This document shows positions 3,507 to 47,484 of a stretch of 64,000 bases of DNA, piece by piece (the stretch's first letter is position 1; every line of letters begins with the position of its first letter). Source of the stretch: an uncultured Gammaproteobacteria bacterium (GTDB lineage Bacteria > Pseudomonadota > Gammaproteobacteria > Competibacterales > JAHEDQ01); the NCBI GenBank assembly GCA_963783675.1, contig CAWAOU010000001.1:15905-79904 (forward strand). Direction: 5' to 3'. A program made the translations under genes and the position numbers. The notes under the pieces are model-generated. The model ran no database searches. It had not been told where the DNA came from and saw only the letters and a program-made list of their open reading frames with translations.

Positions 3507-3510
3507 CGGC

Positions 3511-7691: not shown

Positions 7692-7740
7692 AGGGCATGA
7701 TCATGCCGAATCGAAGTCGTGGGCCACCTGTGACCAGCGA

Positions 7741-7860: not shown

Positions 7861-7970
7861 TCGGTCAATGACGGTTATGTCAGCGGATTGAGGAGGGCGG
7901 CTCGATCGATCGTGGTCCCCCGAAAAATGCCATTATTGCAATCAATCTCATGCGCATTCGGAGATGGCCG

Positions 7971-8568: not shown

Positions 8569-8612
8569 CGAGGACGTGAGGGACGTTCTCCCCCTGGCAA
8601 AGGGTCTGAACG

Positions 8613-9092: not shown

Positions 9093-9096
9093 GCCC

Positions 9097-10684: not shown

Positions 10685-10694
10685 GGAGGCGGGC

Positions 10695-23372: not shown

Positions 23373-24731
23373 ATGGCAAAGCCTCCACTAGAAATTCCCG
23401 GTCCGTTGGGCGCTTCGCGGAAGAGCCGCTGGCTCGCGGGCTTTCGGCGACGATCCCATCCTACGCTCGCGTTGCTCGGAGAGCTTGTGCCCCGCGTTTT
23501 CGATGTTGTCGCGAGCGCTTCGCTGCTTGTGCTTCTATCGCCGCTGTTGGTGACGCTGGCGTTGCGGAGTCGGCATCAGGCGGGTTCTGCGTTAGCGGGA
23601 AACAGGCTGGTCGGCCGGTATCAGATTCCTTTCCGCCGCCTCTCGTTCGCCGGAAACGGGCGATTTCGCGATCTCGCGGTATGGTTGAACGTATTTCGGG
23701 GCGACATGGCCATTGTTGGTCCTCGACCGCTGACTGCAGAAGACGCTGCCGCCGTTCCGGTCGAAGATTTGGTGCGGTTCACGGTCCGGCCGGGCTTGAT
23801 TTCGCCGTTCCGAATCCGAAGCCGCATCGGAATGGCTCATGAACGCGAGTCGGCGATGGATCGGGACCTGGTTTACAGTCAGACGGTCAAGGGTGACCTG
23901 GGGCTTGCGGCGCGATCGATGGTGTCTAGCGTCCTTGGCGGAGGCGGTACTCCGAGGGAAATGCCTCCGATTCTCAACTTCTTCGGAATACCCGTGGTCA
24001 ACACGACCATGAACGAGGCCGTGGACTGGGTTGTCACCAATGCAGCGGGTACGGGAAAAAAACTGATGGCCTTCGTCAATCCGGACTGCCTCAATATTGC
24101 CTGGAAGAACATGGATTACCGTAACATTCTGACCCAGGCGGATCGTGTCTTGCCGGATGGGATCGGCGTCCACCTCGGTTGCCGTATGCTCGGTCAAGCA
24201 TTGCAAGCGAACGTGAACGGGACAGATATGTTTCCCTTACTGTGTGAGGCGGCAGCACGCGCACGGCTTCCAATCTATCTGCTCGGTGCACGGCCCGGCA
24301 TTGCCCAGGCCGCGGCGGACAATATGGTCAAACGCTTTCCCGAGCTGAAGGTCGCGGGCGCGAGAGACGGCTATTTTCGACCCGAGGAAGAAGAAGCCGT
24401 GGTTGACGCGATAAACGATTCGGGGGCACGGATCCTGCTTACAGCCTTCGGTGCACCCCGTCAGGAGCTTTGGTTAGGACGCTGGCGGGATCGACTGGTG
24501 CCGCCGGTCACCATGGGCGTCGGCGGGCTGTTCGATTTCTACTCTGGGCGCATCGCGCGCGCACCGGTATGGATGCGGGAGATGGGGCTGGAGTGGGTTT
24601 TCCGGTTGATGCAAGAACCCGGTCGCATGTGGCGGCGCTACGTGATAGGCAACCCCCTCTTTCTATTCCGCGTGCGGCGGCAGGCGAAGCACCCGGAGCG
24701 GTTTGCTTTGCCAAAGGGTTCGGGCGGTTAG
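23373..24731 (+). CDS. Fusion: degenerate sugar-transferase (PGT-like) domain plus WecB/TagA/CpsF glycosyltransferase
   Basis: The N-terminus RVFDVVASASLLVLLSPLLV...RDLAVWLNVFRGDMAIVGPRPL is PGT-like with DE replaced by DL. The C-terminus FGIPVVNTTMNEAVDWV...FVNPDCLNIA...LPDGIGV...YLLGARPG...TAFGAPRQELW...GVGGLFDFYSG matches WecB/TagA/CpsF. Confidence 0.75.
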   Translation: MAKPPLEIPGPLGASRKSRWLAGFRRRSHPTLALLGELVPRVFDVVASASLLVLLSPLLVTLALRSRHQAGSALAGNRLVGRYQIPFRRLSFAGNGRFRDLAVWLNVFRGDMAIVGPRPLTAEDAAAVPVEDLVRFTVRPGLISPFRIRSRIGMAHERESAMDRDLVYSQTVKGDLGLAARSMVSSVLGGGGTPREMPPILNFFGIPVVNTTMNEAVDWVVTNAAGTGKKLMAFVNPDCLNIAWKNMDYRNILTQADRVLPDGIGVHLGCRMLGQALQANVNGTDMFPLLCEAAARARLPIYLLGARPGIAQAAADNMVKRFPELKVAGARDGYFRPEEEEAVVDAINDSGARILLTAFGAPRQELWLGRWRDRLVPPVTMGVGGLFDFYSGRIARAPVWMREMGLEWVFRLMQEPGRMWRRYVIGNPLFLFRVRRQAKHPERFALPKGSGG

Positions 24732-25528: not shown

Positions 25529-26995
25529 ATGCGCGCACTCGTATTTGCAGATCGCTTGGGCGCCGAGCTCGAGCCCCTCACGGAAAAGTTGGCCGTACCT
25601 CTTCTTCCGGTTGCCGGAAAGGAGCTGCTGGTATACACGATCGAGGAGCTGGTGGGTGCCGGTGTCCGCGATTTGGTGGTCGTCGCGTCGAGCCGTAGCG
25701 AGCAGTCCGGCGCGAGCGTCCTCGGAGATGGTCAACGCTGGGGGGCGAGCATCCGCTATGTGCTCAGCCGTGGCGAGGAGCCCCCATCAGCCGTTTGGCC
25801 GCGTCTGAACCTGGTGGATGCCGAAGCCGTGCTGGTGTTACGCGGCGACGTGCTGCGCTCTCCCACAACAAGGGAGTTCCTGGATCAGGCCCAAAGCAAG
25901 ACGGGTACCGCCGTATTCTGCGCAGTGGGAAAAGATCCCCGCGGTGCGCTGTTCCTCCTGCGCCCAGGATGCCCCGAGCCCGGCGAGTTGATCGATAGCC
26001 TGCGTTGGGACAAGCCCAAGCCTCTCCCAACCGCGGGCGGTTGTTTTGTTGCTGACGCTAGTCTGGACTGTATCGAGGATCTTCCGGCCTTCCACAGGAC
26101 CAATCTTGATCTGGTCGCTGGGCGATTTCCGGGTTTGGGCGTTGCTGGGCGTAGCGTCGCGTTGGGTCTCTACGCTGGCAGAAGGGCCACGGTCTCCCCG
26201 AAGAGCCTAAAGAAGGGGGTGGCTTACGTCGGTGCCAACAGCCGCATTCACCCGGAAGCGGAGCTGCTTGGAGAGGTGGTGATCGGCGACGACGTGGTCG
26301 TCGACCGTGCCGCTACGGTTCGCGACAGTGTGATCCTGCCCCGCACCTATGTGGGTGAGTTGGTGGAAGTCGGTAACGCGATCGTCGTTAGCAACCAACT
26401 CATACGAGTAGACACCGGCGCGATACTCAAGATCAGCGATGCCTTTCTCCTTGGCAACTTGGGCATGACCGCAGAACGTCCGCGGGTTTCGCGCTGGGAT
26501 CGTCTGGCTGGAGGATTGCTGCTAGTGTTGTCGCTGCCCCTCTGGCCGATCGCTGCCGCTGCGGCTGCTCTTTCCGGCGGAGGAGCGCTGATGGTGAGCC
26601 ACGAGTTCGTCGGCAACCGTTCACCCCTTCCTGTCGGGGATGCCGTCGCTAACGGATCTATCGCGAAACACTGGAACACCGACATTCCGGTACTGCGTAA
26701 CCTACCCGGGCTGCTTGCCGTGATTCGGGGAGACCTGCGTCTCGTCGGTGTTTCCCCGCTGACGCCCGAACAATCGGCGGCCCGGACCGAGGACTGGGAG
26801 ATGGTGCGCGATCAAGCACCCGTGGGCCTTCTGGGACCCACCCAGCTCAATCTAAAGGAAGACTCCCCGCTGGAAGAACGCCTGTTGAGCGACGCCTTCT
26901 ACGCCCGGGAGCAGAGCTGGAGAAAGGACATGGGATACCTGCTGAGCGGTCTGAAGATGCTGTTCAGTGGGGAAAGTTGGCGCCGGAATCGTTGA
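25529..26995 (+). CDS. Fusion: NTP-transferase-like N-terminus, left-handed beta-helix repeats, degenerate PGT-like C-terminus
   Basis: The N-terminus is MRALVFADRLGAELEPLTEKLAVPLLPVAGKELLVYTIEELVGAGVRDLVVV. Hexapeptide-like repeats sit near ...GEVVIGDDVVVDRAATVRDSVILPRTYVGELVEVGNAIV. The C-terminus LRNLPGLLAVIRGDLRLVGVSPL has DE replaced by RN. Confidence 0.65.
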   Translation: MRALVFADRLGAELEPLTEKLAVPLLPVAGKELLVYTIEELVGAGVRDLVVVASSRSEQSGASVLGDGQRWGASIRYVLSRGEEPPSAVWPRLNLVDAEAVLVLRGDVLRSPTTREFLDQAQSKTGTAVFCAVGKDPRGALFLLRPGCPEPGELIDSLRWDKPKPLPTAGGCFVADASLDCIEDLPAFHRTNLDLVAGRFPGLGVAGRSVALGLYAGRRATVSPKSLKKGVAYVGANSRIHPEAELLGEVVIGDDVVVDRAATVRDSVILPRTYVGELVEVGNAIVVSNQLIRVDTGAILKISDAFLLGNLGMTAERPRVSRWDRLAGGLLLVLSLPLWPIAAAAAALSGGGALMVSHEFVGNRSPLPVGDAVANGSIAKHWNTDIPVLRNLPGLLAVIRGDLRLVGVSPLTPEQSAARTEDWEMVRDQAPVGLLGPTQLNLKEDSPLEERLLSDAFYAREQSWRKDMGYLLSGLKMLFSGESWRRNR

Positions 26996-27237: not shown

Positions 27238-28143
27238 ATGGATACAGAAGTCGATCGACCGGAAGAGAGTGCGTATCTGCCCAGGGTGGCGATAGCCATG
27301 CGCTCCTACAACGACCGGGGCGTCATTCGGGGGACGCTGGAGATGATCCGTCGGCAAACCTACCCGAACTTCGAGCTATGGAATTTCGACTCTTCCTCCA
27401 CAGACGGCACCTTTGAGATCATTCAGGAGTACAACGATGCCGAGCGCATACGCCAGAACGATTCGGCCAAGTACAATCCGGGCACGGTGCTAAACGACGC
27501 GGTGCGCACGGTGGGTGGCGATGTCGTCGTCTTCATCAATTCCGACGCCACACCCGAGAGCGAGGTCTGGCTGGAAAAACTTATTGCTCCCCTGGCGGAA
27601 TCCCGGGTAGGTGCCGTGTACGGTCGCCAAACCGCTCGGCCGGATTGTCGCGCCCTGTTCGTCAAGGACACCGAGCGGGCGTTTGGCGATGGCCGCGAGG
27701 CCGCCAAGTGGGTGCATTTCTTTTCAATGGCCAATGCCGCCGCCCGCCGCGATGTCCTCGAGCGCTTCCCGTTCGAGACCAGGGTCCAGTACTCCGAGGA
27801 CATCGAATGGTCCTTCCGCCTGCGCAAGGCGGGCCTGGAGATCCGTTACGTGGCGGACGCCGCCGCGACCCACTCTCACAATTACACGCTGCGCCAGTCA
27901 TACAAGCGCCAGTTTGGCGAGGGCAAGGCGGAGGCCTGGATCTTCCGCGACGGCGAGCTCAACACATCTTTTCTCCGATATTGCCTTCTTCCCTTCGGAA
28001 TGGAGGTTGTGCGGGACCTGGGCTGGGTTGTGAAAAAGGGCTCCCTCGACGCGCTCGTCCACACGATTCCCTTGCGCGCCGTCCAAAAATGGGGCCGCTG
28101 GCGCGGACTGATCGAGGGGCGGAAGACCTATGGCGCTGCCTGA
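27238..28143 (+). CDS. Family 2 glycosyltransferase
   Basis: VAIAMRSYNDRGVIRGTLEMIRRQTYPNFELWNFDSSSTDGT...VVVFINSDATP... Confidence 0.8.
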   Translation: MDTEVDRPEESAYLPRVAIAMRSYNDRGVIRGTLEMIRRQTYPNFELWNFDSSSTDGTFEIIQEYNDAERIRQNDSAKYNPGTVLNDAVRTVGGDVVVFINSDATPESEVWLEKLIAPLAESRVGAVYGRQTARPDCRALFVKDTERAFGDGREAAKWVHFFSMANAAARRDVLERFPFETRVQYSEDIEWSFRLRKAGLEIRYVADAAATHSHNYTLRQSYKRQFGEGKAEAWIFRDGELNTSFLRYCLLPFGMEVVRDLGWVVKKGSLDALVHTIPLRAVQKWGRWRGLIEGRKTYGAA

Positions 28144-29305
28144 AGCCCAGATCGCACCGCCCAACCGCGAGCGTTACACGCTGGACGGCGACGCGTCCGC
28201 CGAGGCCCGAATTGCCCGAGACCAGGCGCTGATAGCAGATGCGGTGCAAGCGCTGCTGGCGCCGCCAAAATTCCGAGCCCTGGTTCTCATGGGCGGCTAC
28301 GGCCGCGGGGAAGGGGGCTATGTCTTGCGAGACGGTCTGGCCGAGCCCTACAACGACTACGATTACTTCGTTGTCGTGAGCGGTCTCGACCGGACCCGGC
28401 GTCACTCGTTGGAGCAGGCTTTGGCGGAGCAGGCAAAGGCGCTCGAGCGTGACGTCGGGGTAGAAGTGGACTTCGCTCTGCTGCGCGAGGAAATGCTACC
28501 AAAGGCCGAATACTCGCTCATGAACGCGGAGATGATCTGGGGCCACCGCGTGGTGGCCGGTGTCGCGGACGTTCTGAAGGCGATGCCGCCCATGCCGTTC
28601 AACAGGCTGCCCCTCGGTGAGTTCACGCGACTGCTGCTCAACCGCGGTGCTTTGCTGCTAATGAATCAGAATCGGCTCATGAGCAGCCCGACGCTCAGCG
28701 CCGAAGAGCAGGAAGTCTTCTTCAAGTATCTTTTCAAGGCCATCCTGGCCGTCGGCGATGCCCGACTCGCGGGCAACCAAACCTACCACCCCTCCTATGT
28801 CCGGAAGCTGGATCTCCTGCACGCCACGGATTGGGAAGGGAAGGACGAGTTTATGGGTCTCTATGCTCAAGCCTGGGAGAATAAGTTTCATCCGGACTAC
28901 GGGCGTTACGCCAGGGAGACCCCTGCGATCTGGCAGGAACAGGTGGTTCGCATCTGGCTCGAGACCCTGTCCTGGTTCGAGCGGAAGCGAACTGGAAAGA
29001 GCATCGGTGACTGGGGCGCCTATTGCTCGCCAGCTACCCCTAAGGGTCAGGGACGAGGTTCCTGCGGCGGACTGCGCAATGTTGCGATCACGTTGCGCGA
29101 CTTCGGTTCGGCCGAGGTACTGCGGCACCCCAGCTGGTCCCTCCGCTACCCAAGAGAACGGTTGATCTCGGCGCTGCCGTTGCTCTTGTCGAGCCCGGGC
29201 ACGGCGGTGCCCCTGGCGCCAGCAACAGCACTTTCCTTGCCTTTGGGCACGCCATGGCCGAAGGCGGCGGAGACCTTCCTGCATTTGTGGCGGCGCTATG
29301 CCTGA
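28130..29305 (+). CDS. Uncharacterised Pol-beta-superfamily nucleotidyltransferase (GlnD-like GGYGRGE motif) with helical C-terminal region
   Basis: ALVLMGGYGRGEGGYVLRDGLAEPYNDYDYFVVV followed by GVEVDFALL fits the G[GS]x9-13DxD plus third-carboxylate pattern. No further family recognised. Overlaps the GT2 stop by 14 nt. Confidence 0.5.
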   Translation: MALPEAQIAPPNRERYTLDGDASAEARIARDQALIADAVQALLAPPKFRALVLMGGYGRGEGGYVLRDGLAEPYNDYDYFVVVSGLDRTRRHSLEQALAEQAKALERDVGVEVDFALLREEMLPKAEYSLMNAEMIWGHRVVAGVADVLKAMPPMPFNRLPLGEFTRLLLNRGALLLMNQNRLMSSPTLSAEEQEVFFKYLFKAILAVGDARLAGNQTYHPSYVRKLDLLHATDWEGKDEFMGLYAQAWENKFHPDYGRYARETPAIWQEQVVRIWLETLSWFERKRTGKSIGDWGAYCSPATPKGQGRGSCGGLRNVAITLRDFGSAEVLRHPSWSLRYPRERLISALPLLLSSPGTAVPLAPATALSLPLGTPWPKAAETFLHLWRRYA

Positions 29306-29426: not shown

Positions 29427-31535
29427 ATGCCGACGGCAAACAGACCTGACTTGCTTTCCGTTGTAACCGAGGAATTTGGGTTCGAACGTGGATACCCGTT
29501 ACCCCTGGGCGCAACCGTCGAGCGGGGTGGAATCAATTTTGCGATCTTCTCCCGACACGCCACGGCCGTCACGCTGGTTCTCTTTTTGCCCGGCAGTGCG
29601 GCAGAAATTGCCGCCTTTCCGCTCGACCCCAAGCGCAATCGAACCGGTGACGTCTGGCATGCCTTCGTGGCCGGTCTAAACCCGGGAATAGAGTACGCGT
29701 ACAGAATGGACGGGCCGATATCGGTCCGCCACCGATTCGATGCCGAGGTTTTACTGGCGGACCCCTATGCGCTCGCCCTCAATGGGCGTCGCGTTTGGGG
29801 TGATTCCACCCACCAGTCGCCCGACGCCTTTCGCCGGGCGTTGATCGTCAGTCGCGATTATGACTGGGCGTTGGATCAGCCCATCAACCGACCGCTCGCG
29901 GATTCCGTGATCTACGAGCTGCATGTGCGTGGATTCACCCGAGACGCCAGCTCCCGCGTGGCCGGACCAGGCACATTCCGGGGTCTGGTCGAAAAGATAC
30001 CCCACCTGCTGGACCTCGGAATCACCGCCGTGGAGCTGTTGCCGGTCACCGAATTCGACGAGCTAGACAATGCTCGTGTGAACCCGGAGGACGGCTCTCC
30101 TTTGCGAAACCTCTGGGGGTATCATCCTTTGTCCTTTTTTGCCCTCAAAGCGGGATACGCCGCGGGCACAGGACCCGGCAGTGAGGTGAATGAATTCAAG
30201 GACATGGTAAAGGCACTGCACGCCGCGGGAATCGAGGTCATTCTTGACGTCGTCTACAACCACAGCGGCGAGGGTGATCACCGTGGTCCGGCGTACTCGT
30301 TGAAAGGGGTCGATAACAGCAGCTACTACATGCTTTCAGGTGACGGCAGCTACATGAATTTTTCCGGGTGCGGAAATACCATCAATTGCAATCACCCCTA
30401 TGTCAGACATTTCATCCTGGATAGTCTGCGCTACTGGGTAATGGAAATGCATGTCGACGGCTTCCGTTTCGACCTCGCATCGATTCTAGGGCGCGACCAG
30501 AACGGCAATGTGCTCTCAAGCCCCCCTTTGTTGGAGCAGATCGCCGGCGATCCGGTTCTCGCCGGCACAAAGCTGATCGCGGAGGCGTGGGATGCCGCGG
30601 GACTTTACCAGGTTGGACGTTTCCCAAACTGGGGACGTTGGGCGGAATGGAACGGTTACTTCCGCGATGACATCAGGCGCTTTGTCCGCGGTGACCCGGG
30701 TACGATAGGGCGCCTGGCGACACGGCTGGCCGGTAGCTCGGATCTCTTTCAGAGCGGCCGCGAGCCCGGCCATGGCATCAACTTCGTGACCAGCCATGAC
30801 GGGTTCACGTTGGCGGACCTGGTCAGCTACAACGGAAAGCACAATGATGCCAATGGGGAGGAGAATCGGGACGGCGACAACCACAATCTCAGTTGGAACT
30901 GCGGCGATGAAGGGCCGGCGAACGATCCCTCTATCCAAGTCCTGCGTGAGCGCCAGGTGCGCAACTTCGCGACGCTGCTCCTCCTCTCGCGCGGCGTGCC
31001 GATGATTCTGGCCGGAGACGAAATGGGGCGTACGCAAGGGGGCAACAACAATGCCTACTGCCAGGACGACCGCACTAGCTGGATGGACTGGGACCGGCTG
31101 GAATCCAATCGAAGCCTTTACCGCTTCTTCAAGCTGTTGATCGCTTTCAGAAAGGCACACCAGTTACTGCGCCACGACAGCTTTACGGTGAGAGACGGTC
31201 TCGGTCCCGAAATCAACTGGCACGGATTCCGTCTGGGGGAACCGGACTGGGGTGACGAGTCAAGAAGCCTCGCCATGCATCTGAGCGGATATACGCAGCA
31301 AGGGCAGGCCGAGGATATTTACCTGATGGCGAACGCCCATTGGGAGGCCCACGACTTCGCTCTGCCGACACTCCAGCCCCGACGCTGGTGCCGACTTGTC
31401 GATACGTCCCGTGAGGGTGATGATGCAATCGAGGAGCCAAATGCGTTGCTACCCCTTGAGAATCTCAATCGATATGAAGTCGGGAGCCGAAGCGTCGTTG
31501 TGCTCGTTTCCGAAGGGAGCCGCGGGTCTGCCTAA
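29427..31535 (+). CDS. glgX: Glycogen debranching enzyme GlgX (GH13)
   Basis: YPLGATVERGGINFAIFSRHATAV...VIYELHVRGFT...GITAVELLPV...NLWGYHP...VILDVVYNHSGEG...DGFRFDLASILGRD...LIAEAWDAAGLYQVG...INFVTSHDGFTL. Confidence 0.9.
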   Translation: MPTANRPDLLSVVTEEFGFERGYPLPLGATVERGGINFAIFSRHATAVTLVLFLPGSAAEIAAFPLDPKRNRTGDVWHAFVAGLNPGIEYAYRMDGPISVRHRFDAEVLLADPYALALNGRRVWGDSTHQSPDAFRRALIVSRDYDWALDQPINRPLADSVIYELHVRGFTRDASSRVAGPGTFRGLVEKIPHLLDLGITAVELLPVTEFDELDNARVNPEDGSPLRNLWGYHPLSFFALKAGYAAGTGPGSEVNEFKDMVKALHAAGIEVILDVVYNHSGEGDHRGPAYSLKGVDNSSYYMLSGDGSYMNFSGCGNTINCNHPYVRHFILDSLRYWVMEMHVDGFRFDLASILGRDQNGNVLSSPPLLEQIAGDPVLAGTKLIAEAWDAAGLYQVGRFPNWGRWAEWNGYFRDDIRRFVRGDPGTIGRLATRLAGSSDLFQSGREPGHGINFVTSHDGFTLADLVSYNGKHNDANGEENRDGDNHNLSWNCGDEGPANDPSIQVLRERQVRNFATLLLLSRGVPMILAGDEMGRTQGGNNNAYCQDDRTSWMDWDRLESNRSLYRFFKLLIAFRKAHQLLRHDSFTVRDGLGPEINWHGFRLGEPDWGDESRSLAMHLSGYTQQGQAEDIYLMANAHWEAHDFALPTLQPRRWCRLVDTSREGDDAIEEPNALLPLENLNRYEVGSRSVVVLVSEGSRGSA

Positions 31536-32953
31536 TGATCGATCTGTGCGAGCGATCGATTGTTCTTGTCTTTCGCTGGATTTTCTTGCTTGTAGGCACC
31601 GAAGAGCCTTGCAGCTAACTTCTCGCTCTCCCGAGAGAAATAGGCCGCGCTCATCGAGTCCGCCGGGGCATCCAGGATGACATGGATACCCGGCGTCGCA
31701 AATGGGGAGAAGCTCGCGACAAGATAGTCCGCGTAACTGGATTTCAGCTCCCCTTCGTGAATGAAGAAATCACGCATCCACAGGTTCCCCCCTGTCAGGA
31801 CCTCTTTCTGACCGGGTACCGGCTCGAGAATCAGACCGCGAAATCGCATGCATGCGGCCAGTGAATGGTGGCGTCCGTCGCCGAAGGCACCGTACCAATA
31901 CGCTCGGATGTCCACCGGTTGCCCGGTCAATCTTAGCTGATAGCTGTTGAACGTAAGCTGTTTGGTCATCACGCCGCCCGGCGGGCGCTCGACTGGATGT
32001 GCGATGCCGATGAAGGTCGATAGTGCTAACGGCGCGATGCCCAGCAGCGCCAGGGTGACGATCTCCGGTGCTTTTGGTGGGATTGCCGCACTGGGTGGCT
32101 TGGACTGTGGTTCGCCGCGGACCATCAGATAGACCCTGTAGACGAGCGCAGCGCCCACGAGAACTTGCCATTCCGGCCGCATGGCCAGAAGAGAAACAGT
32201 GCCGGACAGGATGATGACGCCGGTCCAGGAGGACAGCAACTTCCACGAAACGAGCCGGGGGCAAACCAGCAGCCAGGGGATCCAAAGGGATTCCATGTTC
32301 GACCAAGCGATCAACAGGGCGCCAATAGCCCATACCGCGTAGGCGGCGAGCAGTCGCGGCGGGGCGGTTTCCGCCACCCCGCTATGAGCGAGAAAGAACA
32401 GCGTAGCAAGGGCGACGAGACTGCCACCCGGGGAGAAGATCGCAGGCGCGAGCAGGGCCAGAACGAGGCTGAGATAAATGATCTCGATCCAGCGCGTGCG
32501 ATCTGCACGCCTCAGGTCTTCGATGAACAGGAACAGGAACGGCACAAGCCACAGGAAGCCGACCAGGTAGTGCAGTTCCTCGCTTTCCCAAGCCGGGTAG
32601 AACGCGTAGCGGTAACCCGCTAGTGTGAGGATGCGTAGCATGTTGGCAAGCAAGGCGGCCGGGACGCAGAGCAGCAGCCTCAATACCAGGGCCCAGTCGA
32701 ACGGACGCTGCCGATTGGCCCACAGGGTGACGCCCCAGAGGATGATCAAGGTGTTGACGCCGGAACAGTCCTGCGTCCAGGGAAGGACGAGATCGCCCAG
32801 CACGATGTCCGTGCCCCGATTGACTGCCTCGATGCCGAACGCCGTCGCGGCCCCCGTGACGAGGGGGCGTGACAGGTAGGAGAGCACCTCTGTCAGGTTG
32901 GCGGCGTGCAGGAGCAGGAAGATGACCCCTAGCAGAAGCAAATTGTGGATCAT
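31532..32953 (-). CDS. Exosortase-family protein fused to an EpsI-like C-terminal domain; atypical domain order
   Basis: Cys/Arg/His signature: WTQDCSGVNTLIIL (C63), LLANMLRILTL (R107), ELHYLVGFLW (H128). About 5 further TM segments follow, then a Pro-rich linker, a TM, and AYWYGAFGDGRHHSLAACMRFRG (EpsI-like HSxxxC). ATGA overlap with the upstream gene. Confidence 0.75.
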   Translation of the reverse strand: MIHNLLLLGVIFLLLHAANLTEVLSYLSRPLVTGAATAFGIEAVNRGTDIVLGDLVLPWTQDCSGVNTLIILWGVTLWANRQRPFDWALVLRLLLCVPAALLANMLRILTLAGYRYAFYPAWESEELHYLVGFLWLVPFLFLFIEDLRRADRTRWIEIIYLSLVLALLAPAIFSPGGSLVALATLFFLAHSGVAETAPPRLLAAYAVWAIGALLIAWSNMESLWIPWLLVCPRLVSWKLLSSWTGVIILSGTVSLLAMRPEWQVLVGAALVYRVYLMVRGEPQSKPPSAAIPPKAPEIVTLALLGIAPLALSTFIGIAHPVERPPGGVMTKQLTFNSYQLRLTGQPVDIRAYWYGAFGDGRHHSLAACMRFRGLILEPVPGQKEVLTGGNLWMRDFFIHEGELKSSYADYLVASFSPFATPGIHVILDAPADSMSAAYFSRESEKLAARLFGAYKQENPAKDKNNRSLAQIDH

Positions 32954-34042
32954 TGCGCGGAGGCCGTCATTTCAGTCACCCAGTCCTTCACCTCGGCGTC
33001 TCCGTGACGCCGCTTCAGTTCCTGGCCCCACCGATCCGTCTCGATCTGCTCTTTAAGCTCCACGGCGGATAAGAAAAGCAGCAGCACGGTTTCCGTAGAC
33101 AGCTTGATAGGCTCGCTTTCGCGGTGGGAGGCAACGAGCTCGGCATATTTCCGCCCGACAAACAGCTTGCGATCGTTGATCAGCTGCTTGGCCGACGCGA
33201 TGGCGATCTGGCCGGCCGGTGTGTTCGCTTCGATTTCCTGCCTGAGTTGGCGTTTGAAAACCTCCACGTCCGGTGGGGCCGCCTCGCTGCGCGCCACCTC
33301 TCGAAGCGGTGCGACCAGCGTCTTCTTCACTCGGCCCGACGCCAGGGCGCCGCCGATCAGTTTGCGCAGATCCGTGGCCAGTCCCTGGTGGGTGCCTATC
33401 CGCTGAAGAGATTCCAGGTCATAACGGGCCCAACTCCCGGGGTCGGTACGCATATAGCTGCCGAGTGCCTCCCTCAGGTTGCCGTCCAGAGCCTGCACCC
33501 GTGCACGAATTAGCGGAGGGACCTTTCCTTCCGCAACCGCTGTACGGAGTTCCGTGAGGTAAGGGTCCGGGCTGTCCGGGTGCAGCGTCTGCTGGAGTCG
33601 ATGCGGGGCGTAAAGGAAGGCAGGGGGTATGGCCTGGTGGTCCAGGGTATCGAAGGTGGCCAGCGCCTTCTCAGGCGTCTGCTGCAGGATAAGCAGGAGC
33701 GCGCGCAGATAGATCGCTGGCGGTATGTGCACGCCGTCGACAAGTTGAATCAGGCGCTCGATTTCGCCCGCGTCGGCTCCGACTGTCTGAAGCAGCTGGT
33801 TGATTTCTTCCCATCGAAGGGTTTGCAGTTCGGCTTGTGTTAAAGGCGGCTGGGCCGCGAATCGCGGCGTTCCGGCAGTCGCAGAGGTTTCCGTTTGAGG
33901 TTTCTCTCCGACGGGACCCTCTCGGGCCGCGATAAAACCAGAGGCCGGCCACCACGGCAACCGCGCCGGCGACCCCTAACGCGGGCCACCAAGGTTTGCC
34001 GCGCTGGCGTTCAACCGATGCCTTGACGGTCTCCCGCTTCAC
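32950..34042 (-). CDS. Membrane-anchored alpha-helical protein of unknown function; apparent 1-nt frameshift in a T4 run (plus-strand A4 at 33934-33937)
   Basis: MKRETVKASVERQRGKPWWPALGVAGAVAVVAGLWF (start coupled by 4-nt overlap to the PEP-CTERM gene stop) joins IAAREGPVGEKPQTETS... of ORF 32950..33960 if one T is removed. No family recognised. Confidence 0.5.
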
Positions 34043-34833
34043 CTGCGTTTCTTTCGCGACAGCAGGATGAGGGGCACTGCCCCCAGCAGAATCCAGTGGG
34101 GCTCGGGGGCGCCGCTCGGTGCGGCGATATCGCCCCCGCTCGGTGTCGAGGCAGTATAGGCAACGGTAGTGGGGGCATCCGCAAGACCGATGTTGGCATT
34201 GTCGAGGAGTTGGGCATCTGCCTCTGCCAGAATGGCGAAATCCTCGAAGCCTGCGGAGTAGTCGAAGAACTCTTCATTGTCACCGGCGTTTTTCGCGGTA
34301 TCCAGGAAGGTCACATTGATCTGCGCACCGAGGATATCGCCGGTGAAGTTGACATCCTGGATTTCGATCACATCGTCAAAGGTCGACAGGTCGAAACCAG
34401 AGACGGTGCTCGAGATCTGGCTGCTGCCCGTTTGACCGAATAGGGTGTTGTATTCTGCCGCCGCCGTGTCTCCCGCCTCGAGGATCATGGCGGTGGTGTT
34501 CGTGTAAAAGGTGGTGAAACTGAAGGTCCCTTCAGTGGTCTGGATGATCAGGCCCATCTCCTTGATCGCAACGCCCTGGGACGTGGACTTCTCCAGCCCG
34601 GAGGCGCTTTCATTGAGGTCCACGCCGAGAAACAGGGTTCCACCGCTCAGGGCACCCTGCAGCTCGGCAGCGGTCACGTCCTGCATCACATCGATGGTAC
34701 CGCCCCCGGATTTGATCGTGTCTGTCAATACAGCCGGAATCTCCGCATGCGCAGAGCTACCGAACAAGAGCGCCGCCAGTGCCAGGCCGGCACCCGACAA
34801 GCGGATCGCGAACATTTCTACCTGATCGGACAT
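34039..34833 (-). CDS. PEP-CTERM sorting-signal protein (putative exosortase substrate)
   Basis: Signal peptide MFAIRLSGAGLALAALLFGSSAHA. The C-terminus ...APSGAPEPHWILLGAVPLILLSRKKRR is PEP, then a TM helix, then a basic tail. Start 34833 or 34815. Confidence 0.8.
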   Translation of the reverse strand: MSDQVEMFAIRLSGAGLALAALLFGSSAHAEIPAVLTDTIKSGGGTIDVMQDVTAAELQGALSGGTLFLGVDLNESASGLEKSTSQGVAIKEMGLIIQTTEGTFSFTTFYTNTTAMILEAGDTAAAEYNTLFGQTGSSQISSTVSGFDLSTFDDVIEIQDVNFTGDILGAQINVTFLDTAKNAGDNEEFFDYSAGFEDFAILAEADAQLLDNANIGLADAPTTVAYTASTPSGGDIAAPSGAPEPHWILLGAVPLILLSRKKRR

Positions 34834-35158
34834 ACTCTCACCAAATTCCGTCGCAACGCCGCACTCGCTCTCGGAGCGGGTTCTTTTAATAGTTTGCGTA
34901 GATGCAGATTGCGCGCCAACCTTGAGTGAGGGGTGCTGGGCAGGATTCGCCGGAGCGTTCCTTTGCACTTTGCTCCGATTGCATCTCCATTTTGCATTCT
35001 GCGACGCAAGATGGCTTCTGGCCAATCAATAACGCGAAGAGGCCTCCGCAGGGGCCGGAATCTCAAGTGGCAACGCTGATCTGATGCGAGACGTCCGTAA
35101 TGCCGTCCGTGCCCACGAGCAAGCTCGCTGTGTTTCGTAACGTTTGCCCAGCTCGGGT

Positions 35159-38585: not shown

Positions 38586-39686
38586 TCAGCCCCCCGCCAC
38601 GGGTTGGCGCAGGGGCCAGGCGAGCCCTTTGAGCGCCTGCGTCATGGACGCGTAGTAGAGCGAGAAGACCAGACCCAGCGCCAGTTCGGTCAGCACCAGC
38701 GGAGCGCCCGCCGGCAGCACAAGCGGGGCCGCCAGCACCAATGCCAGCAGTCCGATCCAGGCCGGGAAGCGGGACATGATCGACGGCACCCGCAGCGCAC
38801 CGAGCAGGGCCGGCAGGACCCACATCAGGATGAGGGATGCCGCCGCGACCGCCGGCCAGATCAGGTAGGTGTCCCAGACCCCCTGGGTGTAGTTTCGCAG
38901 CAGCCAGATCACGCCCATGTGGACATAGAGGAACAGCAGGGAATACTTGCCCAGCCACAGCAGCCAGGGGAAGACTCGTGCAATGCGGTTCTGAGGCAGG
39001 CGCCGTGCCACATAGAAGGCGCCGGAGGTGAGCAAGACGGAGAACAGGAAATAACCGATGGTCATGTCCCAGCGGTTGTCGATTCCCAGCGGGACGCCCG
39101 CAACCTGTGCCAGGCCCAGCCCCAGGATGGCGGCCCCGGCCAGCCACAGGTTGTGGCGATTGGGGGCAAGGTGACAGAACATGCCGAGGAAGAAGGGGAA
39201 CAGCCAGGGGATGATGACGAAGTTGCCCGGCTCCAGGACCACCGTCTTTAGGTACCCCATCCACCAGAGGTCGCGCGACAGGCCGTCCGTGGCGAGCTTG
39301 AGGGCGAAGACGCCCACCGCGGCGCCAAGGTGAAACCAGGGGCTAGGCTTCAGGTAGCGCTGCACCAGGTACAGCACCAGTACGCCCACGGCGATGATTT
39401 GGAGGATATCCATCTCGAAGGCCGACCAGAAGTCGCCGACGACTATGGCGGCGAAGCTTAGTCCGAGCAGAAAAATCATCGTATAGGTAATGACGATGCC
39501 GGTTACCGGGTATTTGCCTGCCTGGAAGTTGGCCGTTATCCCGGAGACGGCGAAGAACAGGATAGGGGCGAAGCTGCCGAGGAAGGTGAGGGCCTTGGAC
39601 GGCAGGTCGATCTGCAGTTGCGTGTGCGCCAGGAGCATGAGCACGCAGGCAACCCCCTTGAGCAGGTCGAGCGAGTGGTCGCGCAT
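38586..39686 (-). CDS. DUF1624/HGSNAT-like membrane acyltransferase
   Basis: MRDHSLDLLKGVACVLMLLAHT...; polytopic. Confidence 0.6.
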   Translation of the reverse strand: MRDHSLDLLKGVACVLMLLAHTQLQIDLPSKALTFLGSFAPILFFAVSGITANFQAGKYPVTGIVITYTMIFLLGLSFAAIVVGDFWSAFEMDILQIIAVGVLVLYLVQRYLKPSPWFHLGAAVGVFALKLATDGLSRDLWWMGYLKTVVLEPGNFVIIPWLFPFFLGMFCHLAPNRHNLWLAGAAILGLGLAQVAGVPLGIDNRWDMTIGYFLFSVLLTSGAFYVARRLPQNRIARVFPWLLWLGKYSLLFLYVHMGVIWLLRNYTQGVWDTYLIWPAVAAASLILMWVLPALLGALRVPSIMSRFPAWIGLLALVLAAPLVLPAGAPLVLTELALGLVFSLYYASMTQALKGLAWPLRQPVAGG

Positions 39687-39704
39687 GGGTCTTCCCCCCT
39701 CGGG

Positions 39705-41198
39705 CTAGGTTCTGGTGGGCCGGCGGCGAACACCTCGGGTCCGCGCTGTTCGCAGCGGTCGGCGCGGTTGCGTTCGGCCGTTGGTGCCCAGCCGGCCCTG
39801 GTGCATCATCCAGAACCACAGGGCCAGGCGGCGTTTCTCGTTTCTCTCGTTCTTGTGTCGCTCGCGCTCGACGCGATCGAGGGAGGTCACGAAACCCGCA
39901 AGCATAAAATAGGCCACCGTGATCTGGATGGTGCGGAAATTCCACTCGAGGGTGCCGATCAGCCAATTGATGATGAAGCCGGCGAGCACCCCGATGGCAA
40001 CCACACGTTCCAAACTATCCCTGCGCTTCCATATGAAACGCAGGGCAATCCACATGAAGGTACCGGTCAGCAAGACATAGAGTACGACCCCGATGATGCC
40101 GAGCTCGGCATAGTGGAGCCAGAAGATGTGATGGGCGATGCCTCGGTCCAGCGGGGCAAGATCCTCGCCGTAGGGCAGGTAGTTGATGGCGTAGGAGTAG
40201 TTATTGATGCCGACGCCGAAGAAATGGTCGTGGCCCATGTCGGCGGAGGACAGATTGGCCGCATGGCGGGACTCGCCGGACTCTTCCGGGGCGGTCTCGA
40301 AACGCTTGACCACTTCGGGCAGGACGACAGCGAGTGCCGGGATCGAGAGCACGAACAAAACCCCGAGGGCGGCGAACTTCTTTTTGACCTTGGTGGGTCG
40401 CTGTTTCAGCGAAAATGTCATGACGACAATCATGGCGCAGCCGAGGACCATGGTTGCCATACCACCGCGGGAGAGGGTCGCCACCGTGGTGAGGGCCCCT
40501 GCCCCGAGGGCTGCCCAATAGATGAGGGTGCGTTTGTCGAACAGCTTGTCGCTGTCCTGCATCAGTACGGCGAAGATGATGAAGTTCATCATGTTCTGAA
40601 ACGTAGCCAATCCGTTCTGATGATCGAAGGAGCCACGAGGCGGGAAGACGCCGCGTACGTACTTGTCCATCAGGACCTGGGAGAAGCTGTAAAAGGACAG
40701 ACCCACAACGCACCAGACGATGAACCGCATGTCGTCCTCGCTGCGAATGAAGTTGTACGCCACCCAGAAGGTGGCATAGGCCCGCACCAGCTTGGTGACG
40801 CCGAAGAAGGCGAACTGCGGGATCAGGGCGGTGGCGACCGTGAGGGTGCAGTACCCGAGGTACAGCCCCATCCACAGCTCATTGGGGTTCCGGGTGTAGA
40901 GCCGGCGCTTGCGCCAGCGTGGCGCCCTGAGCATAGCGACGACCAGGGTGATGGTAAGCCAGTCGGTGACGCCGAACTCGATGCCGCGGATGTCGCCGCG
41001 GTAGGCGGTGTAGCTGAAGAAGGTCACGTCCACCGGGTTGATGGCCATGAACAAAATGCCGGCCATGCAGACCCGGTCCATCCACTCGAATCTGATGGCC
41101 ATGGGAATGGCCACCGCCAGGAAGCCGATGGTCATGACGACAAAGACCAGCTGCTTGGGGCTGATCGCCTCGGCAAATATCTCAGGCGGCAGGGGCAA
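39705..41198 (-). CDS. O-antigen-ligase/Wzy-like polysaccharide polymerase
   Basis: 12 or so TM segments. TLSRGGMATMVLGCAMIVV is Wzy_C-like, with a large periplasmic loop. Confidence 0.7.
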   Translation of the reverse strand: MPLPPEIFAEAISPKQLVFVVMTIGFLAVAIPMAIRFEWMDRVCMAGILFMAINPVDVTFFSYTAYRGDIRGIEFGVTDWLTITLVVAMLRAPRWRKRRLYTRNPNELWMGLYLGYCTLTVATALIPQFAFFGVTKLVRAYATFWVAYNFIRSEDDMRFIVWCVVGLSFYSFSQVLMDKYVRGVFPPRGSFDHQNGLATFQNMMNFIIFAVLMQDSDKLFDKRTLIYWAALGAGALTTVATLSRGGMATMVLGCAMIVVMTFSLKQRPTKVKKKFAALGVLFVLSIPALAVVLPEVVKRFETAPEESGESRHAANLSSADMGHDHFFGVGINNYSYAINYLPYGEDLAPLDRGIAHHIFWLHYAELGIIGVVLYVLLTGTFMWIALRFIWKRRDSLERVVAIGVLAGFIINWLIGTLEWNFRTIQITVAYFMLAGFVTSLDRVERERHKNERNEKRRLALWFWMMHQGRLGTNGRTQPRRPLRTARTRGVRRRPTRT

Positions 41199-41260
41199 GG
41201 GCTTTACCTGGCACTAGGTTTTGGTTCGCTCCTCGGAAGGCGCTGGTGAAAGTCGCCTCA

Positions 41261-41438: not shown

Positions 41439-41737
41439 TTAGGCCCGACTCAGCTCGGCCCCCCAGGAGCCTGGCGCACGTTGCTTTCTGATCGTGGAAG
41501 CCCAGAAGACGGCAGGGCCTTCTGACTGGCAGGAAGCGCTTGTTCGATCGACGTATCCCCGCAAAATGCTACACCCAGCCCCGGGGGGGCTACAAGGCGG
41601 AGGGGGCCTCGATCCTGGTGCTCGGTGTTTGCACGTGTATGTTGAAAGGCGGCTGGGGCGTCACGTACCATGCGGCGACGTCGGGCGGTGGCAGGCCCCA
41701 CCATCCCCTGATTCTCACGATTTTTGTTGGAGCTTCC

Positions 41738-42733
41738 ATGATTTCCCCGACGGTAAGGTTCATCAAGCGAGTGATCGAAGGGGACAGTCTTCCCGTCTAT
41801 GTGATCTTCCGCAATCCGCTGGTGGTCATCAGCTATTTCGAGGACTTCCTGAGTCATCGGGAGGCCATCCTCAGCGCGCTTGAGGGCCGCAAACCGTACC
41901 TGATTTTCCAATTCGGCTGGCATCGCGAGACCGCGGAACGGGTGGAGGAGGTGCGCCGCGAGGCGCAGGAGACGTTGCGCCTCCGCCCCGAGGCGGAATT
42001 GATCTTTCTTTGCAATTCCGAGCACGAGACCCATTTGATTTCCGCGGCGGGGCTGCGCGCGGAGTTCTGTCATCAGAACGCATTCCTCGACGAGACTCGT
42101 TACCGGACCTATCCGGGAACCCCCAAGTACGACGCCATTTATATTGCGCGCATCACGCCCTTCAAGCGCCATCAGCTCGCCGCAAAGGTATCCTCCTTGC
42201 GGTTGATCGGGGATCATTCCGCCCCGGAGTCCGACTACTTTGCGCAGGTGATGGGGCAGCTGGCCCATGCCAGCTGGAAACGCAAGGTCTTTTCCAGTTC
42301 CGTGTCAAAGGCGATCTGCGAGGCGCGTTGCGGGCTCTGCCTCTCTGCGGAAGAAGGGGCCATGTTCGTCAGCGCCGAGTATCTGCTTTCGGGGCGGCCG
42401 GTGGTTTCCACTGCCAGCCTCGGCGGGCGAGATGCCCTGTTCGGGCCAGCTTATACCTGCCGGGTCGAGGATACACCGGAATCCGTCCTCGCCGGGGTCG
42501 AAGCCATGAAGCGCTGCCCGGTGAGCCCGGCGGAGATTCGGGCGCGCACCATCGAAAAATGCCGCCAGCACCGGGAACGGCTGGTCGGCGTCCTTCAGGA
42601 TATCTGCGATCGTGCTGGGGTGCGCCGTGACGTGGCGGGGGAATGGTCGAGCTACTTCACCCACAAGTTCGGTCTGCGATGTTTCAACGGCCCTCGGGTT
42701 CGGTTGACGCGTATTCTCAAGCGCAAAAAGTGA
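41738..42733 (+). CDS. Glycosyltransferase-like protein (GT-B C-terminal half recognisable)
   Basis: GGAG SD. ...CLSAEEGAMFVSAEYLLSGRPVVSTASLGGRDALF is a GT1/GT4-like EX7E region. Confidence 0.5.
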   Translation: MISPTVRFIKRVIEGDSLPVYVIFRNPLVVISYFEDFLSHREAILSALEGRKPYLIFQFGWHRETAERVEEVRREAQETLRLRPEAELIFLCNSEHETHLISAAGLRAEFCHQNAFLDETRYRTYPGTPKYDAIYIARITPFKRHQLAAKVSSLRLIGDHSAPESDYFAQVMGQLAHASWKRKVFSSSVSKAICEARCGLCLSAEEGAMFVSAEYLLSGRPVVSTASLGGRDALFGPAYTCRVEDTPESVLAGVEAMKRCPVSPAEIRARTIEKCRQHRERLVGVLQDICDRAGVRRDVAGEWSSYFTHKFGLRCFNGPRVRLTRILKRKK

Positions 42734-42844: not shown

Positions 42845-43921
42845 TCAGTTCGAACCGCTTCCGCTGACTGAATTGCTTAGGATGATCCCGGTCTGAATGG
42901 CCGTTATCGTCGGCACAATTTTGTCCAGCATGCGAGCCCAGCTCGACAAACTCGTCGGTGGGACATAGACCACGTCTCCGGGTTCGAGCTGCACGTCTTG
43001 CTGCTGACCGGCAATGACTTTGTTGAAATCGGTGACGATCAAGCGGGGGTTGGCAAGAGAGCCGCGAATGACATGGACCCGTGACAAGTCGGCATCCTGG
43101 GTGAAGCCCTCGGCCAAGGCGACGGTGCGCGACATGGGCATCTCTTCGCGGAAGGCGAACAGGGCCGGGGCCTTGACCTCACCGATGATGTAAACCTCCT
43201 GGGATAGGCCGGAGGGAATATTGATGTAGTCCCCGGCTTGGAGGGCGATGTCGAAGCGCAGATCTCCCTGCCGCAAAAGGCGGACGAAATCCACCGGCAG
43301 CAGGTCGCCTTGGCGCGCGATAAAGGCGTGGGTGAGGTCGGCGAGCTCGACTGAGCTGGAGCGGAACTGGCCCTTGTTCAGGCCGCCGGCCTTGGCCACC
43401 GCGGCGGTGATGGTGACATCCGTAACCAGCGGGTAGACTCCGGGCCGGACGACCTCGCCGTTGATGACGTAATTGAGGCTGTTGAAAGCGGTGACGATGA
43501 TCGAGACCTTCGGGGCCAAGATGTATTGACGCAAGCTGTTCGTTAGGTCCTCATTGACCTCCTGCACAGTCCGGCCGTTGGCCTGAATGTCGCCGACCAG
43601 CGGGAAGGAGATTCTGCCGTCGGGGCGGATCGGCACTTCGGAGATGGTCAGATCGGGCTCATCGTAGACCGAGATACTCAGAACGTCCCCCTTTCCCAGG
43701 CGAGGTTCGATGGTTGTTTCGGAGATGATGCGCTCCAGCTCAGCTAGTTGCTCCCCGGGAGTTTGGCGCAAGTCGATCTGGGTCGCAGGAAGGGCGGGCG
43801 CTGCCGCCGCGAGCGGGGGTTGGTCGGATGAGGGGGGGGCGGGTGGGGCGCTTGCGCACCCTCCCAGCAGGATCGCGAAGAGATGGACGGCAAGCCGGGA
43901 GGCGTTGTCAACTGTTCGCAT
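42845..43921 (-). CDS. Polysaccharide export outer-membrane lipoprotein (Wza-like)
   Basis: Lipobox LLGGC. LGKGDVLSISVYDEPDLTISEVPIRPDGRISFPLVGDIQANGRTVQEVNEDL (Poly_export) plus SLBB-like repeats. Confidence 0.85.
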   Translation of the reverse strand: MRTVDNASRLAVHLFAILLGGCASAPPAPPSSDQPPLAAAAPALPATQIDLRQTPGEQLAELERIISETTIEPRLGKGDVLSISVYDEPDLTISEVPIRPDGRISFPLVGDIQANGRTVQEVNEDLTNSLRQYILAPKVSIIVTAFNSLNYVINGEVVRPGVYPLVTDVTITAAVAKAGGLNKGQFRSSSVELADLTHAFIARQGDLLPVDFVRLLRQGDLRFDIALQAGDYINIPSGLSQEVYIIGEVKAPALFAFREEMPMSRTVALAEGFTQDADLSRVHVIRGSLANPRLIVTDFNKVIAGQQQDVQLEPGDVVYVPPTSLSSWARMLDKIVPTITAIQTGIILSNSVSGSGSN

Positions 43922-46487: not shown

Positions 46488-47325
46488 GACGACGCAGGTC
46501 GTCCACCACAGCGGCGATTGCGGACCCTGTAAAACGCCCTAAGTCTTTGGTCAGAACATACTCCAGGGCGACCTTGCAGATGCGATTGACCTCCCGGGGG
46601 ATACCGTGACTGGCGCGGAACAGTATGTCAAAGGCGTCGTTATCGAACGGGAACGCGCCGCGATAGCCCGCCACTGCGAGGCGGTGGCGGACGTATTCGC
46701 GGGTTTCGTCCGCGGTTAGGGCGGTTAGGTGGAAACGCAGGCTTACCCGCTGATCCACCTGGGGGATCTGGCGCAGATGCGCGCGCAGCTCCGGTTGACC
46801 GATTAGAATGACGGTCAGGTAGTTCTGGCGCTCCGAGGAGATGTTGGTCAGGCCCTTGATGGCGTCAAGACACCTGGGGTCGAGCTGCTGGGCCTCGTCA
46901 AGCATGATGACGAGATGGCGATTGTGGCTGGCGATCTGCTCGGTCAGCAGGCGTTTGAAGGCGGCCAAGCGGCTGTAACGGTCCGGGTAGTCTGAGGCGC
47001 GTAGCCGCTGCGACTGGACCTGGCTCAGAATCTCCAGCAGCAGGTCGTCGAAGGCAAGAAGGCCGTTCTCGATACTGACCCGGACGTGGCTGTCAGGGGA
47101 CAGTCGCGAGTGCAGCACCGTGCGCAGCAGGGTTTTGCCGGAGCCGATCTCCCCGGTGAGCAGGCCCATGCCCATGTTGCGATCCTCGGCGAGGAATAGC
47201 AGGCGCGAGAGTGCCTCCGCGTGGCCCGCCGACGGGAAGAAGTAGCGGGTATCGCGGGTACTGTCGAATGGTGGCGCCGGTGGGTTGTTCGCCGTCAGTT
47301 GCGGATCGGCGACATAGCTGGCCAT
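46450..47325 (-). CDS. ExeA-like AAA ATPase, PEP-CTERM-locus type (TIGR03015-like)
   Basis: YFFPSAGHAEALSRLLFLAEDRNMGMGLLTGEIGSGKTLL...LVIMLDEAQQL...LIGQPELR. Confidence 0.8.
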   Translation of the reverse strand: MASYVADPQLTANNPPAPPFDSTRDTRYFFPSAGHAEALSRLLFLAEDRNMGMGLLTGEIGSGKTLLRTVLHSRLSPDSHVRVSIENGLLAFDDLLLEILSQVQSQRLRASDYPDRYSRLAAFKRLLTEQIASHNRHLVIMLDEAQQLDPRCLDAIKGLTNISSERQNYLTVILIGQPELRAHLRQIPQVDQRVSLRFHLTALTADETREYVRHRLAVAGYRGAFPFDNDAFDILFRASHGIPREVNRICKVALEYVLTKDLGRFTGSAIAAVVDDLRRHGGLFDAAADPL

Positions 47326-47484
47326 GCCAAGGCGTTGCCTCGTGTCTGTGGGTAAGATTCCTGGTTCGATCAAGACCTTATTATATTGCAAGGTTGCTGC
47401 CAATCCGGTCGCGGCGCCAGACTTGTGCACTCTGGTGGGTTGCGGCTGGGGATCGGGACGATGCAACCACCCCACACAATGAAC

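Follow-up and report, generated by a model that had tools for sequence, protein, structure and literature searches.

Within the window, a 64,000-nucleotide stretch of contig CAWAOU010000001.1 from an uncultured gammaproteobacterium, the listing of open reading frames (ORFs) places three co-directional genes, a, b and c, on the minus strand at positions 31532-34833. As described in an initial annotation of the sequence, the genes are chained by two 4-nt overlaps: GTGA at 34039-34042, which combines the TGA stop of gene a with the GTG start of gene b, and ATGA at 32950-32953, which combines the stop of the b frame with the ATG of gene c. The locus is a membrane protein-sorting cassette made up of one secreted cargo (gene a; family A), one helical-repeat helper (gene b; family B) and one exosortase (gene c). 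As judged by sequence, the cassette is a variant of exosortase Z (XrtZ), a system that is known but experimentally uncharacterised: the type of enzyme and its layout are already described, which leaves the helper gene and the cargo family as the undescribed parts. More specifically, the window holds a proteobacterial XrtZ variant with an unmodelled cargo, a Glu-type sorting tail and a TPR-like helper, the gene for the latter being broken in the assembly.

The family assignment comes from gene c. Residues 3-453 of its product align with positions 3-457 of the 460-position NCBIfam model NF050190, ‘exosortase Z’ (E 1.9e-132), at a score of 442 bits, as compared to the NCBI curated cut-off of 475 bits. 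The protein also passes the cut-offs for the exosortase/archaeosortase superfamily (TIGR04178, 37.3 bits, cut-off 23; PF09721, 36.8 bits, cut-off 25.7) and fails the canonical EpsH model with eight transmembrane (TM) helices, TIGR02602 (29.3 bits versus the 105.55 required). The generic exosortase models cover residues 6-143 only, and do so with their end parts: positions 109-247 of 254 in the case of PF09721 and 95-234 of 241 in the case of TIGR02602. Gene c is therefore without the N-terminal ~100 residues (TM1-3) of canonical exosortases, as the initial annotation had suspected. The order of elements in the catalytic core is one N-terminal TM segment, a beta-hairpin and then the helices bearing C63, R107 and H128, the triad that had been spotted within the first 130 residues and that is invariant in our homologue set (42/42). 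A missed N-terminal extension of gene c, the caveat raised alongside that observation, is excluded because in-frame stops lie 8 codons 5' of the ATG; the start positions of the homologues likewise rule out an exon-like segment further upstream.

An N-terminal triad was already known, since the model of exosortase K (XrtK; TIGR04287, 163 positions) has its Cys region near position 66. NF050190 itself has the same N-terminal placement of the triad as gene c; because this is an existing subfamily model, and because the initial annotation had itself named such a match as decisive, its proposal of an undescribed exosortase subtype fails. Database searches returned 76 homologues of gene c (34-97% identity, the nearest being 97% identical; mostly 455-509 aa, the shorter ones spanning part of the query only). 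We modelled the enzyme with AlphaFold2 (AF2; predicted local distance difference test score, pLDDT, 84.9; predicted template modelling score, pTM, 0.81). A fold search of the PDB with this model gave a best E of 1.2 and no usable match, and it brought up no structure of a bacterial exosortase. The coordinates of the cassette and its elements are collected in Table 1.

Table 1. Positions of the cassette genes and their elements in the window, with the basis of each assignment
Feature	Positions	Strand	Basis
Gene a, dedicated cargo, 264 aa	34039-34833	-	ORF and translation
Sorting signal of gene a, residues G241-R264	34042-34113	-	sequence: GAPEP, TM helix WILLGAVPLILLS, RKKRR
Gene b, membrane-anchored TPR-like partner, +1 frameshift	32950-34042	-	two frames; intact homologues
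Extra C (TAT-C-GCG) shifting the b frame	33931	-	alignment to L006
Gene c, exosortase Z-like enzyme, 473 aa	31532-32953	-	NF050190 match, homologues, AF2
Catalytic core of gene c, residues 1-143	32525-32953	-	PF09721 and TIGR04178 matches, invariant residues, hhalign
C63	32765-32767	-	
R107	32633-32635	-	
H128	32570-32572	-	
Extra TM helix block, family-specific, residues 144-321	31991-32524	-	AF2 helices, NF050190-only match
C-terminal alpha/beta domain, residues 322-460	31574-31990	-	invariant columns, AF2
Candidate sigma-54 (-24/-12) promoter TGGCGCGCAATCTGCA	34903-34918	-	~70 nt upstream of gene a start

The product of gene a (258 aa if translation starts at the alternative ATG at 34815) opens with a Sec signal peptide, MSDQ...SSAHA/EIPAV, and the mature protein of 211 aa is strongly acidic (pI 4.05; 31 acidic and 4 basic residues), which bears out its description as a secreted acidic protein. 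It ends in APEPHWILLGAVPLILLSRKKRR. Written out, the tail reads SGAPEP-HWILLGAVPLILLS-RKKRR; with a PEP motif, a TM helix and a C-terminal basic cluster, in addition to the N-terminal signal peptide, gene a has the tripartite PEP-CTERM layout, and it is the sole ORF with a PEP-type tail in the 64-kb window. The full protein had no match in Pfam or NCBIfam at E<=0.1, the PEP-CTERM models TIGR02595 / PF07589 included, and its 38-aa tail did not match the PEP-CTERM models in NCBIfam at E<=10; these scans should include the PEP-CTERM models, and in the tail search the HMMER filters may lose very short, weak matches. The tail did not match the PGAP-CTERM model NF050189 either, nor did gene a match NF050191, the model of the Npun_F0296 family exosortase-dependent surface protein.

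Family A comprises 234 database homologues that are 55-98% identical to gene a, all of them annotated as ‘hypothetical’ and none with a Pfam domain (the nearest is 98% identical). It is more conserved than either B or XrtZ: A proteins are 60% identical where the XrtZ proteins are 49% identical. Proteobacterial A tails follow the pattern G[AT]PEPxW…[KR] cluster, whereas the tails of verrucomicrobial A proteins, and all tails of A', the Npun_F0296-type cargo found at other XrtZ loci, follow APGAP[ATVI]PP… (PGAP-CTERM). As the tail of one and the same family is GxPEP in Proteobacteria and PGAP-type in Verrucomicrobiota, tail and enzyme co-vary. The orthologous cargo of Haloferula gives a weak match to NF050189 (14.8 bits, under the 25-bit cut-off). 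On the strength of these motifs, the gene a tail is a Glu-containing variant of PGAP-CTERM with the appearance of PEP-CTERM. We rejected homology between the cargoes A and A' themselves (hhalign probability of 1.8% with the tails removed); the weak A/A' cross-matches seen in the locus searches stem from tails and signal peptides.

The stretch of gene b from 34042 to 32950 is 1093 nt long, which is no multiple of 3. The frame that starts with the GTG at 34042 (MKRETVKASVERQRGKPWWPALGVAGAVAVVAGLWFY…) includes the TM helix and runs for 123 aa to a stop at 33671, and the long frame at 32950-33960 (336 aa) opens at a TTG at 33960 only and encodes the helical-repeat domain without the TM helix. When aligned to contig L006 (98.6% identity over 2947 nt), the window has a single coding indel, the C at 33931. 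The corresponding L006 product, P0077, is an intact protein of 363 aa that is 97% identical and reads …LWFYAAREGP… across the site, and the B proteins of the other relatives are likewise continuous (351-363 aa, with an N-terminal TM helix). The description of gene b as a protein of ~360 aa with one N-terminal TM helix thus holds for L006, but not for the window, where it is split between two frames. The extra C either arose in assembly or reflects a recent mutation that inactivated the gene.

Family B has 56 homologues with no Pfam domain assigned, and neither Pfam nor NCBIfam holds a model for it. In the AF2 model of P0077 (pLDDT 80.9) a TM helix at residues 21-38, preceded by basic residues, is followed by a disordered linker and an all-alpha repeat at residues 69-361. 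The best Foldseek matches of this model are TPR proteins (probability ~1, E 0.01-0.07, TM-score ~0.3), among them LbcA, the TPR partner of the CtpA protease. Weak Pfam TPR matches were detected in 8-12 of 38 B members (best 1e-4); the b fragments of the window and P0077 had no Pfam TPR match, and a PDB sequence search with the B profile gave no match. The positive-inside rule would place the solenoid in the periplasm.

If the frameshift is real, the cassette would be a decaying remnant in which B is not made and A goes unprocessed or is processed without B. We consider this doubtful. It is true that the single extra C stands against an intact b in a contig that is 98.6% identical, and that it does not lie in a long homopolymer, the commonest context of assembly indel errors; furthermore, the A and B genes are fragmented in genome L048, and the databases contain the A-XrtZ fusion remnants P0381 and P0385. 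However, genes a and c are intact and closely match their nearest database proteins (98% and 97% identity, respectively), there is no second coding indel within 2.9 kb, single-base indels are frequent in metagenome/long-read assemblies, and there are B-less loci at which A and XrtZ may still work.

A genome scan located XrtZ-like genes in 52 species-level genomes. The carriers are Gammaproteobacteria and Chromatiales, with the metagenome-assembled genome MFD09779.bin.2.196 (83% identity) as the nearest relative, Thiodictyon, Myxococcota, Desulfofustis, many Verrucomicrobiota, including Rubritalea marina DSM 17716 and Haloferula luteola, and Lentisphaera marina. When the loci were sorted by local profile searches, with L052, which carries two systems, counted under two types, 24 were A-B-XrtZ trios, 21 were pairs of cargo A' and XrtZ without B, 3 were A-XrtZ loci without B, 2 were Thiodictyon loci with a low-complexity cargo that has a GAPEPPW tail, again without B, and 3 were unclassifiable. 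The dedicated cargo-partner-exosortase cassette is therefore no peculiarity of the window: it recurs in 24/52 species genomes, spread over Gammaproteobacteria, Myxococcota/Desulfobacterota and Verrucomicrobiota, and both the A-B-XrtZ order and the stop/start overlaps are kept in relatives of 83% and 49% identity with differing neighbourhoods. The partner, by contrast, is not obligatory as had been supposed. Of the 50 classifiable loci, 26 lack B: 21/52 genomes have a cargo-XrtZ pair without B, and 3 more have an A cargo without B. B is common, not obligatory.

NCBIfam holds signal, enzyme and cargo under the consecutive accessions NF050189, NF050190 and NF050191, and the A' cargo of Rubritalea marina, the pair-type example tested, matches both NF050191 (9e-47) and NF050189 (38.6 bits, cut-off 25). 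NF050190 scores are 590-637 bits for the pair type, 492-544 bits for the verrucomicrobial trio, 400-462 bits for the proteobacterial trio, including the window, and 312-504 bits for A-XrtZ without B. In a rough neighbour-joining tree the pair type forms one clade amid several trio lineages, and the window falls into the proteobacterial trio clade.

Is the locus, then, an ordinary XrtZ, wholly described by the curated PGAP-CTERM/XrtZ/Npun_F0296 system, with nothing new about it? The end-to-end alignment of gene c to NF050190, the verrucomicrobial trio members that exceed the cut-off and the coverage of signal, enzyme and a cargo by consecutive models all agree with this, yet we find it unlikely: the window enzyme and all of the proteobacterial relatives tested stay under the cut-off, cargo A and the Npun_F0296 domain are not homologues, B is without a model in either collection, and the tail has E where PGAP-CTERM has A, T or V. 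A variant of the XrtZ system with components of its own remains our preferred reading.

Several of the loci in the scan are irregular. In L052 (Verrucomicrobiaceae; 2825-7964) an A'(PGAP-CTERM)-XrtZ pair (637 bits) is followed by an A-XrtZ paralogue (313 bits) without B. The two Thiodictyon loci (L010 4200-6398 and L011 4546-6329) make up the branch closest to the window clade; they have lost B, and in place of cargo A they encode a low-complexity protein with PATPAN and Ser/Gly-rich repeats, in which the GAPEPPW tail is kept. In the short proteins P0385 and P0381, a cargo N-terminus (of A or A') runs directly into the final ~45 residues of the XrtZ C-terminal domain, which suggests either chimeric assembly or what a deletion within the cassette has left behind.

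Behind the triad, the AF2 model of XrtZ has ~7 further helices at residues 152-315 and an alpha/beta domain, with its strands and helices, at residues 329-457, in line with the ~5 extra TM segments that the initial annotation placed after the triad, ahead of a further domain. Isolated mid-regions match NF050190 only. W353, R361-H362-H363 and C368 are invariant in the C-terminal domain, which is probably periplasmic, as helix counting and the charge distribution suggest. The domain had been called EpsI-like, an assignment that our searches do not support. The EpsI models TIGR02914 / PF11984 matched neither the full window protein in the Pfam and NCBIfam scans nor the isolated C-terminal domains at E<=10 (10 diverse domains against Pfam, 3 against NCBIfam), and a HMMER profile of the domain returned 136 matches from 1.84 billion representative proteins, all of them XrtZ-like or fragments/chimeras. 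The HHSxxxC motif of XrtZ may loosely resemble an EpsI motif. The PDB search yielded no structure of an EpsI protein.

The other suggestion, that the helices are permuted rather than lost, is likewise unsupported. While the catalytic half of canonical exosortases aligns with XrtZ residues 35-137 at an hhalign probability of 95% (the positive control), the canonical N-terminal helices align with XrtZ residues 144-322 at a probability of 1.1%, which, with two canonical sequences only, is weak negative evidence. The two sequences, which align full-length to XrtA and XrtQ, are exosortases of loci L050 (463-1278) and L020 (5034-5906), both from Opitutaceae: each is the second exosortase of its locus, ~265 aa long, with its Cys near residue 180, lies <4 kb from the XrtZ trio and scores under every specific NCBIfam cut-off. 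An undescribed subtype with N-terminal helices circularly permuted behind the triad, an EpsI-like fusion and an obligatory partner would accommodate the coverage of residues 6-143 only by the generic models, the ~7 helices and soluble domain after the triad and a length near that of XrtA-EpsI fusions (as remarked in the initial annotation; such fusions are described in PMC1569441), but it is highly improbable given a curated model, NF050190, with exactly the architecture of gene c, the hhalign result, the lack of EpsI matches among diverse members and in the profile search, and the many loci without B. All in all, what the initial annotation observed is partly confirmed and its interpretation partly supported, and gene c stands as a member of the XrtZ family.

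How does the cassette compare with the known systems? With the exosortase Z set (NF050190/NF050189/NF050191) it shares end-to-end enzyme homology, with the short N-terminus, the triad within the first ~130 residues, the extra TM helices and the C-terminal domain; a single cargo gene directly upstream of the enzyme; and a tail composed of a G-A-P...P core, a TM helix and a basic cluster. It departs from this set in the enzyme score (442 bits versus 475), in a cargo from an unrelated acidic family, in a GAPEP rather than GAPAPP tail that NF050189 does not recognise, and in the TPR-like B that separates cargo and enzyme. The Cys/Arg/His core, the setting in an exopolysaccharide (EPS) locus and the PEP-type tripartite signal are common to XrtA/EpsH with EpsI (TIGR03109, TIGR02602, TIGR02914; PMC1569441), and some XrtA proteins also have a fused C-terminal domain (PMC1569441). 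However, canonical EpsH has at least 8 TM helices (PMC1569441), with ~100 residues before the core, XrtA serves many substrates, and the C-terminal domain of XrtZ has no detectable EpsI homology. XrtK is similar in the position of its Cys region, near 66 of 163, but is minimal, with neither extra helices nor a C-terminal domain, and its match to gene c is marginal (E 0.047).

ArtA of Haloferax volcanii has a homologous catalytic core and cleaves a tripartite C-terminal signal, its cargo being lipid-anchored (PMC9263693). Unlike the cassette enzyme, it is archaeal, recognises a PGF-CTERM signal, serves many substrates, has the canonical N-terminal helices and lacks a B-like partner. Finally, PrsT (TIGR02917; PMC1569441) resembles B as a TPR-type accessory that co-occurs with an exosortase system; PrsT, however, is a lipoprotein and B is anchored by an N-terminal TM helix, and there is no sequence match between the two, so the analogy would be a functional one only.

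The cassette lies in an EPS locus. The window encodes GT2, GT4 and WecG glycosyltransferases and Bac_transf proteins, as well as a flippase, an acyltransferase, a GH9 hydrolase and an isoamylase. At 43908-47475 on the minus strand are genes for an 859-aa Wzc-like protein, weakly related to the chain-length determinant/tyrosine kinase of XrtA systems (TIGR03007, TIGR03018), and for a 341-aa AAA_22 ATPase akin to the PEP-CTERM-system ATPase TIGR03015 (165 bits versus a cut-off of 324): faint similarities to the XrtA gene set in the vicinity of an enzyme of the XrtZ type. The 83% relative (L001) has the neighbourhood of the window, whereas the 49% relative (L004) does not, and there a gene for a hybrid kinase and one for a sigma-54 activator precede the cassette directly.

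Upstream of gene a we noted a candidate sigma-54 promoter (Table 1). Within the window alone this pattern match is not above chance; similar -24/-12 elements are found at a similar distance upstream of a in L006, L001/L007, L008, L004, L016, L017 and L018. RpoN dependence has been reported for PEP-CTERM genes (PMC9850573), and the recurring -24/-12 elements 5' of gene a fit with it. A scan of the cassette for sigma-70 promoters and terminators yielded nothing exceeding chance.

We put at roughly 0.8 the probability that the locus is a dedicated sorting cassette of the XrtZ/PGAP-CTERM kind within the exopolysaccharide cluster of this uncultured gammaproteobacterium, and that it works along the following lines. 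A would be exported by Sec, with its C-terminal helix and RKKRR holding it in the inner membrane. The XrtZ-like enzyme would recognise GAPEP at the periplasmic face of the membrane, and Cys63, aided by Arg107 and His128, would cleave the anchor off A. The enzyme may then set A free or, more likely, attach it to an acceptor located either at the cell surface or within the polysaccharide. B would cross the inner membrane once, with its TPR-like solenoid in the periplasm, and probably acts as an adaptor or scaffold by which either A or the acceptor is brought to the enzyme; for the XrtZ C-terminal domain and its invariant RHH...C, a part in binding the acceptor or in a second chemical step is probable. 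For the chemistry we infer by analogy from ArtA (PMC9263693) and from Haft's model (PMC1569441). In ArtA, mutagenesis identified the conserved Cys and Arg as catalytic, with Cys173, Arg214 and Arg253 being required (PMC9263693); in the literature examined, ArtA is the only member of the exosortase/archaeosortase family with mutated residues (PMC9263693). That an enzyme can be adjacent to its target in ‘dedicated one-to-one systems’ is an established concept (10.1101/2023.06.07.544157).

What was observed is the homology, the architecture, the gene order, the conservation, the motif variation and the b frameshift; cleavage, transfer and topology, together with the parts assigned to B and to the C-terminal domain, go beyond these observations. 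Several points count against the scheme. Gene c scores under the NF050190 cut-off, and the gene a tail is recognised by neither NF050189 nor the PEP-CTERM models. With gene b frameshifted in the window, the cassette may be impaired; moreover, because B is missing from many XrtZ loci, it is not essential to the chemistry. Lastly, the literature that we searched yielded no mention of exosortase Z, XrtZ or PGAP-CTERM and no experimental study of any XrtZ member.

A, B and the XrtZ C-terminal domain are all without described relatives. We only tentatively entertain a bolder version of the proposal, in which A-B-XrtZ would be a distinct and widespread XrtZ subsystem, possibly the ancestral one, with A needing B as its adaptor and the RHH...C domain performing or directing attachment.

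Outside the cassette, the region upstream of the EPS locus (4407-14127) carries genes typical of an integrative conjugative element: a tyrosine recombinase at 4407-5705, a TraD coupling protein at 11045-13048 (TIGR03754, 788 bits) and a DUF4400 protein at 13045-14127. The GC content is lower, 0.55, at 4-8 kb of the window. Two plus-strand ORFs encode unusual fusions, one of a partial Bac_transf domain with WecG/TagA (23373-24731) and the other of a nucleotidyl transferase with a partial Bac_transf domain (25529-26995; conserved in L001). Three further plus-strand ORFs of the EPS locus had no Pfam/NCBIfam match: 28130-29305 (391 aa), 39618-41249 (543 aa) and 41540-42733 (397 aa). The 391-aa ORF is conserved beside the isoamylase gene in L001.

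With one enzyme and one cargo, a cassette of this kind is the least complicated system for locating the cleavage site and identifying the acceptor by mass spectrometry, and cultured relatives are at hand: the trio is present in Haloferula luteola, and the helper-less pair in Rubritalea marina and Lentisphaera marina. The XrtZ branch provides two handles, namely the conserved helper and an enzyme-fused, predicted periplasmic domain with invariant His and Cys residues. For annotation, it matters that the NCBI XrtZ cut-off excludes the proteobacterial branch and that the A and B families are without models. Should the adaptor reading of B be true, this would be a first example of an exosortase that works with its own adaptor protein.

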